DNA of 38,769 bases, taken from positions 1 to 38,769 of the IMG/VR virus record IMGVR_UViG_2778261204_000005, one strand, 5' to 3'. Shown in pieces: positions 1,690 through 37,761 of the stretch. Position numbers and translations under genes: made by a program. Numbering within the stretch: position 1 is the stretch's first letter; each line of letters opens with the position of its first letter. The notes beneath the pieces are model-generated. The model saw only the letters and a program-made list of their open reading frames with translations, made no database searches and was not told the origin of the DNA. The stretch comes from a virus (Duplodnaviria > Heunggongvirae > Uroviricota > Caudoviricetes).

Positions 1690-1704
1690 TGGTGTCCCCT
1701 GCAG
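1690..1704. repeat. attL core, direct repeat of the last 15 nt of tRNA-Arg (tggtgtcccctgcag)
   Basis: Exact 15-bp match to 37687..37701; position computed from torI stop codon. Confidence 0.75.
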
Positions 1705-1777
1705 ACATCGACTTGAGGCGGCAGGGGATTGATTGGAATGGTGTTTTTTAGATGTGAGAAATATTTTACCCGCTATT

Positions 1778-1978
1778 TTACCCATTGGCGCGGCTTAAGA
1801 GCTTATTTTTGAATTCACAATGGTCACGATATAACCATCTTGCTCGACCGTGGATAACTTTGGCTTTAGGCAGGTCGCCGGACTTAATCCGGTCGTAGAT
1901 GAAGGTTTTACCAAAGCCAGTATCAGCCATGATGAATTTCAAATCAACCAGTGAATCAGGTTGTAGTTCGTGTTGCAT
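1778..1978 (-). CDS. torI: excisionase / recombination directionality factor, TorI (AlpA/Xis family)
   Basis: 66-aa ORF recognised as TorI of the KplE1 prophage; sits at the attL end. Confidence 0.85.
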   Translation of the reverse strand: MQHELQPDSLVDLKFIMADTGFGKTFIYDRIKSGDLPKAKVIHGRARWLYRDHCEFKNKLLSRANG

Positions 1979-1997
1979 GAGTGCTATCTCCGAATAG

Positions 1998-2013
1998 GGA
2001 ATCGAACCTGCAA
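1998..2013 (-). repeat. second tRNA-Arg-derived fragment (ggaatcgaacctgcaa, T-arm segment) inside the prophage, just upstream of torI
   Basis: 16-nt identity to the tRNA segment immediately 5' of the attL core portion. Confidence 0.55.
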
Positions 2014-2020
2014 ATCAGGC

Positions 2021-2043
2021 AATAAAAAACCGCCATCAGGCGG
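2021..2043 (-). terminator. rho-independent terminator (CCGCC-ATCA-GGCGG plus U-run on minus strand)
   Basis: GC hairpin followed by TTTTTTATT on the minus strand, between orf103 and torI. Confidence 0.6.
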
Positions 2044-2086
2044 CTTGGTGTTCTTTCAGTTCTTCAATTCGAATATCGGTTATGTC

Positions 2087-2398
2087 TTATTCGATGCGTA
2101 CTCCTGGTATTTCGCCTTTTGATATTGCTAAGTCATAAATTTGCGCAGCACTATACCCATCTCGCATCCATGAATCTAAGGCGCGAATAGCCTCGCTACG
2201 CTTTTTATCTTCTCTCTCATTTTTGATATCAACGAGGACATCAACGCAATTAAGGCAAATGTGGATTTTGTCATTACATTCGATCATGGCGGCTTTACCA
2301 TGATTTCCGCCACACAGTGAGCATAAATCTTCAGGGTCTGGCTGGTATTTCTGTAACGTTAGATGGTTGAATGTTGAACAGACCATAATCATCTCCAT
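2087..2398 (-). CDS. hypothetical protein with Cys-rich zinc-ribbon-like motif
   Basis: 103-aa ORF with CSLCGG...CLNC motif; followed by terminator. Confidence 0.5.
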   Translation of the reverse strand: MEMIMVCSTFNHLTLQKYQPDPEDLCSLCGGNHGKAAMIECNDKIHICLNCVDVLVDIKNEREDKKRSEAIRALDSWMRDGYSAAQIYDLAISKGEIPGVRIE

Positions 2399-35924: not shown

Positions 35925-35929
35925 AGCGT

Positions 35930-35953
35930 AAGGGGTGGGCACCCCTTATATTT
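35930..35953 (+). terminator. terminator-like hairpin after tailspike
   Basis: AAGGGG-loop-CCCCTT followed by AT-rich tract. Confidence 0.5.
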
Positions 35954-36010
35954 ACTTAGCCTGATACAAATCACCACCGTATCCGAACCACCATATAATG
36001 CTCATTTTTT

Positions 36011-36334
36011 TTGTGTAAGCCCTGCGGGGTGATGTTCCACAGCGATCAGGGCAGTCATTATACGAGCAAGCAGTTACGGCAGTTATTGTGGCGATACCAG
36101 AACAAGCAGAGTATGAGCCGGCGCGGAAATTGCTGGGATAACAGCCCAATGGAACGCTTCTTCAGAAGTCTGAAGAACGAATGGATACCGGTGGTGGGTT
36201 ACGTAAGCTTCAGCGAGGCAGCTCACGCCATAACGGATTATATCGTTGGATATTACGGCTCACTAAGACCGCACGAATATAACGGTGGGCTACCCCCAAA
36301 CGAATCGGAAAATCGATACTGGAAAAAACTCTAA
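36011..36334 (+). pseudogene. IS3-family transposase (OrfB) C-terminal remnant
   Basis: [10 protein letters not shown]...[25 protein letters not shown]...[21 protein letters not shown] is the C-terminal end of IS3-family OrfB; N-terminal two-thirds absent. Confidence 0.8.
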
Positions 36335-36367
36335 CTCGGTGGCCAGTTTTTGTTGACCACTTCAGGA

Positions 36368-37525
36368 TCACTCTACCTTCCCATCAAGACAGTCTGCCCA
36401 CCACTGCATCATTTCTCTGCGTTTATCGAGATACTGAGCATGGTTGTAAATCCCGCGCACAGATCCGCCGTTGGCATGTGCCAGTTGCACTTCAATAGCA
36501 TCAGCAGGCCATTCGTGCTCGTTCATAATTGTGCTGAATTCATGCCTGAATCCGTGACCGCTTTCCAGACCCTCATAGCCGATTTGTTTGATCACAAGCA
36601 GCACCGCGTTCTCGCAGATCGGCTTCTTCTTATCGTTGCGCCCGGCAAAAACAAACTCTGATACTGGTTTGGTGATTGAGCTTAGCGTAGTGAGAAGTTC
36701 AACCACCTGGTCTGACATCGGGACCACATGAATTTTGCGTCCCTTCATCACACTGGCGTCAATGGTGATAATCCTGTTTTCAAAATCGACGTTCTTCCAT
36801 AGCATGGAACGAAGCTCTTTTGTTCTGAGGGCTGTGTAGCGTAAAACTTTGGTCGCAATGAGCGATACGATGCTTCCTGAAAATGTTGCCAGTGCTTTGT
36901 TGAATGCCGGGATCTGGTCTGCAGGAAGAAACGGGAAGTTCTTCTTGCGGTATCCCTTCATGGCGTCAGCAAGGTCAGGTGCCGGGTTATATTTAGCCCT
37001 ACCAGTAACAATAGCGTAACGGAAAACCTCGCCGCATCTTCTGCGTGCTTTGTTGGCTCGCTCCATTGCGCCGCGATCTTCAAATCTGCGGATTACTTCC
37101 AGCAGTTGCATCGGCTCAATATCCTGAATTTCAAGACCGCCGATGATGGGTAAAATGTCGTCATCAAACATTTTGGCAAGTTCAGTTGCATAGCCTACTG
37201 ACCAGACTTGCTTCTTGTGCTCGTACCATTCCTTGTAAATCGCACTAAATGAATTGTTGTTAGACGAAGCCTTTTTCGCCTTTACCGGATCGATGCCAAC
37301 CGAGATGTCTTTCCTCGCAGTCCATGCCTTATCCCTTGCTTCCTGCAAAGTCATAAGCGGATATTTTCCGACAGTCAGGATTTTCTCCTTACCGTCAATC
37401 TTGTAGCGAAGCTGCCATACCTTTTTCCCTGACACAGGGACATAAAGGTACAGGCCATTACCATCGAGAAGGCGGTATGGTTTTTCTTTCGGCTTTGCTG
37501 CTTCAATCTGCTTAACGGTGAGCAT
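36368..37525 (-). CDS. intS: tyrosine integrase, IntS (KplE1/CPS-53-type)
   Basis: Catalytic C-terminal region (HGFRHEF, HANGGSVRGIY); start set at ATG (MLTVKQIEAAKPKEKPYRL) to give the 385-aa length recalled for K-12 IntS; track ORF extends to 37561 from a GTG. Confidence 0.9.
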   Translation of the reverse strand: MLTVKQIEAAKPKEKPYRLLDGNGLYLYVPVSGKKVWQLRYKIDGKEKILTVGKYPLMTLQEARDKAWTARKDISVGIDPVKAKKASSNNNSFSAIYKEWYEHKKQVWSVGYATELAKMFDDDILPIIGGLEIQDIEPMQLLEVIRRFEDRGAMERANKARRRCGEVFRYAIVTGRAKYNPAPDLADAMKGYRKKNFPFLPADQIPAFNKALATFSGSIVSLIATKVLRYTALRTKELRSMLWKNVDFENRIITIDASVMKGRKIHVVPMSDQVVELLTTLSSITKPVSEFVFAGRNDKKKPICENAVLLVIKQIGYEGLESGHGFRHEFSTIMNEHEWPADAIEVQLAHANGGSVRGIYNHAQYLDKRREMMQWWADCLDGKVE

Positions 37526-37686
37526 GGGTAAAAATCCGGTGGGTAAAATTATTTTATCCACTTTTTACCCGTCATGGAGTGCGGCTGTCAACGATCTGAC
37601 GCGAACCATGACGAACTGTGAATCTACGGGAGGCTTGATATCCAGGGGATTTTGCGGACTGGTACGGATGGGAGCGAACTGATAAA

Positions 37687-37761
37687 TGGTGTCCCCTGCA
37701 GGAATCGAACCTGCAATTAGCCCTTAGGAGGGGCTCGTTATATCCATTTAACTAAGAGGAC
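37687..37761 (-). tRNA. argW: tRNA-Arg (anticodon CCU), argW-type; its 3' end is attR
   Basis: 75-nt cloverleaf read on minus strand: acceptor stem GTCCTCT/AGGGGAC, anticodon loop CT-CCT-AA, T-arm GGTTCGATTCC, 3' ACCA. Confidence 0.9.

Follow-up and report, generated by a model that had tools for sequence, protein, structure and literature searches.

The window analysed here is a stretch of 38,769 nucleotides (nt), positions 1 to 38,769 of IMG/VR virus record IMGVR_UViG_2778261204_000005. It carries a prophage inserted at the tRNA gene argW of Escherichia coli, with its integrase gene, intS, at one end and the gene for its recombination directionality factor (RDF), torI, at the other. Judged from sequence, the prophage is very probably a mosaic temperate P22-like podophage, a Lederbergvirus of the HK620/Sf6/HF4s/CUS-3 group, with the mechanism set out below. 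Neither the gene order nor the split module is remotely likely to be a chance result, and the element aligns block by block with HK620, Sf6, HF4s, CUS-3, JEP4 and Kapi1 at 92-100% DNA identity. The features at the two ends of the prophage, and the host genes beside them, are as follows.

1 to 1248: host gene for a cscB-type oligosaccharide transporter of the major facilitator superfamily, left flank
1690 to 1704: att core at the torI-side junction (attR in K-12 naming), an exact repeat of 37687 to 37701
1778 to 1978, minus strand: torI, recombination directionality factor (excisionase), 66 of 66 amino acids (aa) identical to K-12 TorI
2024 to 2044, minus strand: terminator-like hairpin GCCGCCTGATGGCGG and then a T run, directly upstream of torI, identical in HK620
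36368 to 37525, minus strand: intS, tyrosine integrase of 385 aa, 99% identical to K-12 IntS
37526 to 37701, minus strand: attL region with the promoter PintS, five TorI pentamers and the core, from the alignment with K-12 attL
37687 to 37761, minus strand: argW, tRNA-Arg CCU (ARAGORN and Rfam tRNA), its 3' end supplied by the phage core
37837 to 38769: host yfdC, right flank

The prophage runs from 1690 to 37701, between two exact copies of the 15-nt direct repeat TGGTGTCCCCTGCAG (1690-1704 and 37687-37701). Its length is 36,012 bp counting both cores, for a phage genome of about 35,997 bp. The right-hand copy is the 3' end of argW, and homology to the attP core of HK620 and Sf6 and to K-12 attL and attR begins and ends precisely at the two repeats. 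The module core of about 16 nt, CTGCAGGGGACACCAT, is defined in published work (PMC2951348); 15 of its 16 nt are duplicated exactly here, and the sixteenth, a host-side base at the left junction, is different. The original prediction had placed a prophage at this site, which the repeat, the host flanks and the block-wise alignment with known phages bear out. Of the span it gave, 1690 to 37761, the start is exact, but 37761 is the 5' end of argW and the junction is at 37701.

From the left flank across the junction into the beginning of torI, the sequence has 99.8% identity to E. coli O104:H4 and further strains, and the argW/yfdC flank has 98-99% identity to K-12 and one clinical E. coli. Because the flanks match E. 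coli at 98-99.8%, the host is taken to be an ordinary sucrose-positive strain of that species. The left host flank (1-1689) is the csc (sucrose) region; K-12 has dsdC in this place.

The integrase has all of the expected Pfam domains, Arm-DNA-bind_3, Phage_int_M and Phage_integrase, for arm binding, the central part and catalysis. TorI is also identical at 66 of 66 aa to HK620 HkaC and Sf6 gp18, as has been reported for HkaC and Sf6 P18 (PMC3509656). Each of the two genes adjoins one copy of the core, torI at the left end of the prophage and intS at the right. The HK620 and Sf6 records annotate attP between int and the torI homolog, which puts torI and intS at opposite ends after integration. 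Based on the published definitions of the TorI sites and PintS (PMC2951348), the five pentamers (GTTCG, GTCCG, GTTCG, GTTCG and GATCG, starting at 37679, 37659, 37616, 37606 and 37596) are all kept in register with K-12, as are the -35 (TTGACA) and -10 (TAAAAA) boxes of PintS. The attL and attR regions are 95-97% identical to those of K-12 where aligned, with 6 differences in 197 aligned positions of attL, none of them in a motif, and 15 in 307 aligned positions of attR. The paired arm-type repeats TATTTTACCC (GGGTAAAATA) at 1762-1783 are conserved with K-12 attR. At the level of sequence, a KplE1-type split int/RDF module at argW is confirmed; the claim that IntS and TorI lie at opposite ends, in the CPS-53/KplE1 arrangement, was right in both the positions and the identity to K-12 (99% and 100%).

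The hairpin at 2024-2044 would be a leftward terminator that is read through under the antiterminator N. No lambda-type cII site (TTGC-N6-TTGC) was found upstream of torI, the only one present being the pRE site at 10171-10184; in HK620, the cII site annotated upstream of the torI homolog is spaced by N5. About 20 bp upstream of torI, at 1998-2013 on the minus strand, the argW T-arm sequence TTGCAGGTTCGATTCC recurs as an exact copy of 16 nt, where 0 are expected by chance. It contains a GTTCG pentamer of the TorI type and overlaps the cII site and the pI promoter annotated in HK620.

Gene content was checked by BLASTP against lambda, HK620, Sf6, HF4s and K-12. The early-left operon, the N leader and the immunity region contain the following features; those from 2087 to 4689 were assigned by BLASTP, PHROG and Pfam.

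2087 to 2398, minus strand: Sf6 gp19-like gene
2573 to 3256, minus strand: DUF551 gene
3096 to 3758, minus strand: Ead/Ea22-like gene
3755 to 4225, minus strand: HkaH-like gene
4222 to 4384, minus strand: DUF2737 pseudogene, the homolog of HK620 hkaI, frameshifted (alignment A1)
4396 to 4689, minus strand: Abc2 anti-RecBCD gene
4713 to 5300, minus strand: SSB, full length, 97-99% to HK620, as are the next two
5297 to 5977, minus strand: Sak4-like annealase
5986 to 6186, minus strand: hkaM
6171 to 6430, minus strand: kil and cIII, 92% and 100% (46 aa) identical to lambda
6372 to 6430, minus strand: cIII thermoregulator RNA (Rfam Lambda_thermo, 88.5 bits against a threshold of 50)
6490 to 6858, minus strand: ea10 (DUF2528), 100% to lambda Ea10
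7054 to 7476, minus strand: Sf6 gp34-like gene, 99% to Sf6 gp34
7485 to 7784, minus strand: N antiterminator of 99 aa (phrog_271), with the arginine-rich motif NARNRRRARRQAQR
7800 to 8003, minus strand: optional N-leader block 1, a clean insertion relative to HK620 and HF4s
8095 to 8302, minus strand: putative conserved-fold element of about 208 nt, in optional N-leader block 2 (8093-8344)
8347 to 8518, minus strand: nutL and pL/OL, by inspection of the sequence and by homology to the nutL/pL/OL annotated in HK620
8672 to 8968, minus strand: gene of 98 aa downstream of cI, a full-length match to phrog_18389
9009 to 9716, minus strand: cI repressor of 235 aa, ATG at 9716 (Pfam HTH_3 and Peptidase_S24)
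9729 to 9791: OR, three ATAAC-N4-GTTAT operators (9729-9742, 9753-9766 and 9778-9791), read from the sequence
9807 to 10052, plus strand: cro (Pfam P22_Cro/HTH_3)
10060 to 10102, plus strand: nutR, with boxA at 10060-10071 and boxB at 10087-10102, read from the sequence
10162 to 10458, plus strand: cII (Pfam Phage_CII), 95% to lambda

Over residues 1-64, the first two thirds of the protein, N has 99% identity to HK620 N; its identity to HF4s N is 93%. The HK620 record labels its own N as similar to H19B and 21 N. The central part of the protein in the window may resemble N of phage 21, and its C-terminus lambda N. Both nut sites have the boxA GCTCTTTAACA and the same boxB hairpin, those of nutL being at 8376-8386 and 8347-8362. 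Two strong operators (8436-8449 and 8461-8474) make up OL, with weaker sites as far as 8518. The residues for self-cleavage are present in CI: the Ala-Gly in LSAGSG, the Ser in GQSMEP and the Lys in LRVKTL. CI would thus be a LexA-like repressor able to cleave itself, and operators to match it are present at both pL and pR. The pRE cII site at 10171-10184 is TTGCGTTTGTTTGC.

The 98-aa gene, which has no Pfam match and whose sole match is that uncharacterised PHROG family, occupies the position of lambda rexAB directly downstream of cI. Block 1 is 99.4% identical in HK140 and 81% in CUS-3; directly upstream of N, it contains a strong Shine-Dalgarno sequence, an ATG-TGA start-stop pair, a 9-codon open reading frame and a GC-rich hairpin.

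The replication, nin, lysis, packaging and virion genes follow on the plus strand, up to the tailspike and the insertion sequence remnant that separates it from intS.

10481 to 10753, plus strand: small open reading frame in the replication module
10756 to 11703, plus strand: O-like initiator (Pfam Phage_rep_O), 99-100% to HF4s
11700 to 13076, plus strand: DnaB-type helicase P (Pfam DnaB and DnaB_C), 99-100% to HF4s
13158 to 15820, plus strand: nin region, with orf70, ninB, ninE (in-frame stop), ninF, roi, hkbD (HNH), rusA and ninH
15817 to 16335, plus strand: Q, 97% to Sf6 gp59 and of the 21 type according to the Sf6 annotation
from Q up to 16932, plus strand: late leader, its pR'/qut/tR' 98-99% identical to Sf6
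16933 to 18150, plus strand: lysis cassette with S, R, Rz and the embedded Rz1 (17912-18097)
18372 to 18893, plus strand: gene for a protein of 173 aa with a C-terminal Tad2-like (anti-Thoeris/AcrIIA7-like) domain (Pfam PF11195, 3e-25)
19299 to 33236, plus strand: packaging and virion genes, DUF2560 first, full length, 88-100% to Sf6/HK620
19621 to 20046, plus strand: terS (Pfam Sf6_terminase), 88% to Sf6
20043 to 21455, plus strand: terL, 100% to Sf6
21458 to 23584, plus strand: portal
24494 to 25765, plus strand: coat
31239 to 33236, plus strand: gp16, 98% to Sf6
33326 to 33619, minus strand: Mnt-like Arc-family repressor (Pfam Arc and Repressor_Mnt)
33708 to 35924, plus strand: tailspike of 738 aa, with a P22-type head-binding domain and a divergent receptor-binding domain
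35928 to 35949: terminator-like hairpin after the tailspike, from the terminator scan
36015 to 36364: IS911 remnant of 350 bp, the 3' part of orfB and one terminal inverted repeat

The replication genes have 98% DNA identity to CUS-3, and ninB is 100% identical to that of lambda. S and R are 98% identical to lambda, and Rz/Rz1 are 97-98% identical to Sf6. The set of cIII, kil, cII, S, R and Rz had been described as lambda-type. This is correct for the first five; Rz is of the Sf6 type (98%, against 59% to lambda). The attribution of the terminase and virion genes to the Sf6 type stands, based on TerL, TerS, gp16 and the gp26 needle, the last also being 98% identical to Sf6. Portal, scaffold, coat, gp4 and gp10 are 99-100% identical to Sf6/HK620, hkbT lies between coat and gp4, and gp14, gp7 and gp20 are 93-99.6% identical to a prophage of E. 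coli WCHEC115106. The late genes have the P22-type order, terS-terL-portal-scaffold-coat-gp4-gp10-gp26-gp14-gp7-gp20-gp16-tailspike, and all are full length.

After the late terminator, a 300-bp block (16393-16692) replaces the tRNA-Asn/Thr genes of Sf6. Phage Huey has all of it, and many phages of Klebsiella, Enterobacter and Escherichia have a stretch of some 40 nt from it (16458-16497), about 92% identical; no tRNA and no Rfam match were found in the block. The 173-aa protein encoded between the lysis and packaging genes matches PDB chains of Tad2 and AcrIIA7 (E 1e-13 to 1e-16) and has a 73-residue N-terminal extension; its gene is a candidate anti-defence gene. The Mnt-like gene is alone between gp16 and the tailspike gene, without arc or ant nearby, and looks like a remnant of the P22 immI region.

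Full-length homologs are present for N, cro, O, P, Q, S, R, Rz/Rz1 and all of the packaging and virion genes, and those genes expected to be necessary for lytic growth align end to end with homologs from viable phage isolates. The chief doubt was the tailspike, because the IS911 fragment lies 90 bp downstream of it. Its head-binding domain (PF09008, E 5e-66) covers residues 1-113. Homologs in E. coli assemblies are 738-739 aa, with 91-92% identity and 100% coverage, and the best phage match, a protein of Lelliottia phage phD2B, is 45% identical and aligned through the last residue. For the receptor part (residues ~125-738), neither the 5,426 complete E. coli genomes nor the phage records contain a near DNA match. 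The tailspike is judged complete on account of the homologs of the same length, the phD2B alignment to its last residue and the hairpin that follows the gene.

Three lesions were found. The IS911 remnant, 95.7% identical to positions 32878-33227 of the Sf6 IS911 copy, has one true end, the inverted repeat, 3 bp from the intS stop codon, and its other end is truncated. No O-antigen conversion genes are present between the tailspike and intS, whereas relatives, further argW prophages among them, carry them where the remnant lies: gtrABC in HF4s and KplE1, oac in Sf6 and a wzy-like gene in HK620 and WCHEC115106. It would appear that an IS911-associated deletion has removed the usual conversion genes. 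In ninE (13928-14104), codon 44 is an in-frame stop (14057-14059), after which the remaining NinE residues continue in the same frame. The homolog of DUF2737/hkaI has a 1-nt deletion, CCC to CC, at about 4364, after codon 7, which shifts the frame. In lambdoid genetics the nin region, the early-left accessory genes and the conversion module are dispensable. All three lesions are in such regions and none is in a gene known to be essential. They reflect either the beginning of decay or sequence errors.

It is clear that 'intact', as the prophage had been called, is too strong a word, although each of the lesions is in an accessory region. A frameshift or truncation in an essential gene, which would have spoken against a functional phage, was not found. 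The contrast drawn with K-12 is also upheld, since the full lytic gene set and a LexA-type repressor are retained here and not in CPS-53. For the same reason, induction is plausible.

From these components a life cycle can be proposed, each step of which is taken by homology from the KplE1 and lambdoid mechanism; what the comparison gives directly is the identity of the genes, their completeness and the conservation of the att, operator and nut sites. IntS would have inserted the phage at the 3' end of argW in a sucrose-positive E. coli. In the lysogen, the LexA-like CI would keep pL and pR off through the ATAAC-N4-GTTAT operators. The intS gene, adjoining attL and argW, would be transcribed from its own promoter, overlapping attL, to make IntS continuously at a low level; PintS is repressed by both IntS and TorI (PMC2951348), and the same would be expected here. 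At the other end, torI closes the leftward early operon beside attR. DNA damage (SOS) would lead to self-cleavage of CI and the release of pL and pR. N, acting at nutL and nutR, would then allow readthrough of terminators, including the hairpin at 2024-2044, so that TorI is made and, with the resident IntS, excises the genome. Transcripts from pR would supply Cro, cII, the replication proteins and Q, with the O protein and the DnaB-type helicase replicating the genome. The 21-type Q, at the Sf6/21-type late leader, would turn on S, R, Rz/Rz1, Sf6-type headful packaging and the P22-type virion genes. Finally, the tailspike with its divergent receptor-binding domain would set the host range.

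Whether such a cycle could run to its end depends on how the lesions are read. Several points weigh against a functional phage. There are three marks of decay, the IS911 stump with the loss of the conversion module, the ninE nonsense codon and the DUF2737 frameshift, and the stump has also cost the sequence normally found downstream of intS. A comparison of lengths and identities is blind to missense changes that inactivate a protein. Moreover, since the exact mosaic is absent from the collections searched, no identical phage of proven viability can serve as a control. In DNA searches, matches to HK620 extend over 56% of the left two thirds (97% identity) and those to Sf6 over 71% of the right half (95%). 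These are the best coverages (56-71%) among the phage records, and the best at any single place in the 5,426 complete E. coli genomes are 66% for positions 1-25000 and 85% for 19000-38769. The prophage could therefore look complete and yet be cryptic, perhaps excising but giving no infectious particles because of hidden lesions or the IS911-associated deletion. The decay already begun and the want of an identical viable genome speak for this. However, every lesion found affects a region that is known to be dispensable or can be expected to be so, the essential proteins are collinear with those of phages isolated as viable particles, at 88-100% identity, and the tailspike is full length. A cryptic prophage is thus considered unlikely, and it is rather probable, on sequence grounds, that the element still produces infectious particles.

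It is less likely still that the ninE stop and the DUF2737 frameshift are sequencing or assembly errors, in which case the prophage would be wild type apart from the IS scar. The frameshift is in a short C run, a typical site of error, and a single-base change suffices for the ninE stop. Yet nothing in the data favours error, and there are no further broken open reading frames in the rest of the window. That the region is an assembly chimera of two argW prophages or phages, to which its mosaicism and the lack of a single relative covering it might point, is highly improbable. Such mosaicism is normal for this phage group, the gene order is canonical throughout, the boundaries between segments fall between genes called intact, and the host junctions match E. 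coli chromosomes on both the cscB/torI side (99.8%) and the argW/yfdC side (98-99%). A mosaic temperate P22-like prophage with accessory lesions remains the preferred reading.

A second finding concerns the N leader, the stretch from nutL to N. Two clean insertions, 7800-8003 and 8093-8344, distinguish this leader from those of HK620, HF4s and JEP4. The second, block 2, also occurs in mEp213, in Stx2c phages, in a Hafnia phage, in an E. coli siphophage and in Klebsiella phage RothC, the last of which has it, in unchanged orientation, with Q on one side and two tRNA genes on the other. The element within it (8095-8302) is preceded by a Shine-Dalgarno sequence and the mini open reading frame ATG GTG CAC TAA (8328-8304), and a Shine-Dalgarno sequence with a mini frame of 1-6 codons precedes it in 5 of 5 aligned copies, from the window and the named phages. 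An invariant 20-mer of the element, GCCAGACGCGCACCGGTTAT, is present in at least 119 IMG/VR contigs and in 19 species-representative genomes, nearly all of Enterobacterales. Of the 5,426 complete E. coli genomes, 117 contain the element, none with an annotation of it as RNA. Rfam gave no relevant gathering-threshold match to it in a search of the whole window, and none at E<=1 for 7700-8700.

The fold was analysed using 91 distinct copies (alignment A3) and a hand-drawn structure of 40 pairs. Several of the hairpins carry compensatory changes. Pairing holds in 95.0% of the cells of this structure; with the 3' partners displaced by 1-3 columns it falls to 24-43%. Both members of a pair have changed in 91 cells, compared with 22.6 +/- 3.7 after shuffling (0 of 500 shuffles reached 91). 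The covariation score was 0.118; shuffling gave 0.067 (0 of 500 as high), and no displaced control exceeded 0.047. The shuffle control leaves relatedness in, the element sequences forming about three subfamilies. The minimum free energy of the window copy is no better than that of shuffled sequence (z = 0.35), so the case for a structure is one of covariation only. An all-against-all mutual-information scan of the alignment was dominated by the subfamily structure and was not used to define helices. RNAalifold, run on the MAFFT alignment of the 91 sequences, gave a poor consensus because the variable domain was misaligned. One helix, 158-160/202-204, lacks support in one of the subfamilies.

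Which strand would be the RNA was assessed by G-U against A-C counts. Overall the counts are ambiguous, with 95.0% of cells pairing on the pL-sense strand and 94.9% on the other. The pL-sense strand is favoured by four well-kept hairpins (53 G-U against 16 A-C), of which three have some of the best covariation support, and the opposite strand by two helices. Where flanking genes were recognisable they share the orientation of the element: cI upstream (~32), N downstream (~14), Q upstream (~9) and holin or tRNA genes downstream (~12). Family members apparently have two equivalent places, co-oriented with the operon: from nutL to N, or after Q and before lysis or tRNA genes.

A protein-coding reading of the element was rejected, as there is no 3-base periodicity and 1-nt insertions or deletions are found within conserved stretches. 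The Pas small RNAs, near Q, lysis and tail genes and ending in terminators, are not obviously the same and were set apart by description only. The full-text literature search returned no description of the element, which is weak evidence of absence. Taken together, the covariation suggests that this is, in all likelihood, a real conserved structured element. That it is both real and undescribed, a widespread family of ~200-nt structured RNAs in the lambdoid phages of Enterobacterales, is put forward tentatively, at somewhat less than even chances. If so, the RNA would be made early in lytic growth and could act on antitermination, on RNA processing or as a decoy against host defence. It would then be a conserved non-coding component of early and late leaders in those viral contigs, E. 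coli genomes and other Enterobacterales, and could matter more than the prophage itself.

Comparison with Sf6, HK620 and K-12 CPS-53, the check proposed with the original prediction, supports a mosaic P22-like prophage with a split module. HK620 (NC_002730) has the same int-attP-torI module (IntS 98%, TorI 100%) and integration at argW. At 96-100% it shares the early-left recombination genes, roi/hkbD/rusA/ninH of the nin region, and the head and head-completion genes. It differs in cI/cro immunity, cII, replication, Q, Rz, the needle, gp14/gp7/gp20/gp16 and the receptor domain of the tailspike; it has its wzy-like conversion gene where the window has the IS911 stump, and lacks both N-leader blocks. 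Sf6 (NC_005344) has the attP core, IntS (99%) and TorI (100%) in common with the window, and likewise TerL (100%), portal to needle (98-99%), gp16 (98%), Q (97%) and Rz/Rz1 (97-98%). Sf6, unlike the window, has the O-acetylase gene oac, tRNA-Asn/Thr genes following Q, immunity of the 434 type, recombination genes of the Erf type and a complete IS911 in ninG; the fragment in the window is elsewhere, beside intS.

The E. coli Lederbergvirus phages HF4s, Kapi1, CUS-3, JEP4 and Gally share the cII and replication modules at 96-98% DNA identity but differ in cI/cro immunity, tailspikes and conversion genes. HF4s also has a similar N (93%), gp20 (84%) and gp16 (92%) and the same int/xis pair; no protein match to the cI and cro of the window was found in HF4s. 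The K-12 element CPS-53/KplE1 has the same site, core, IntS (99%), TorI (100%), attL/attR regulatory sites and opposite-end arrangement. It is a 10.2-kb remnant with no repressor or lytic genes that keeps the gtr-type yfdGHI, whereas the element in the window is 36 kb, with a full lytic gene set and no conversion genes.

The value claimed for the prophage as a full-length relative of KplE1 is already supplied by HK620, Sf6, CUS-3, Kapi1 and HF4s (PMC2951348, PMC3509656, PMC8787464). The KplE1 module is highly conserved in CUS-3, HK620, Sf6 and the APEC-O1 and UTI89 prophages, with transcription of int and the RDF gene uncoupled in all of its carriers, and the directionality of recombination has been studied with HK620 substrates (PMC2951348). 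In Kapi1, int and xis are at either end of the prophage in argW (PMC8787464). This particular mosaic is new to the collections searched, its split-module layout is already published, and the prophage is an ordinary one. The receptor domain of its tailspike is in none of the deposited phage genomes searched (best phage match 45%), and there is modest practical value in the indication that the conversion module beside intS can be lost through IS911. In other respects the prophage is one more mosaic of a well-studied group, in which HK620, Sf6, CUS-3 and Kapi1 are already functional relatives of KplE1.

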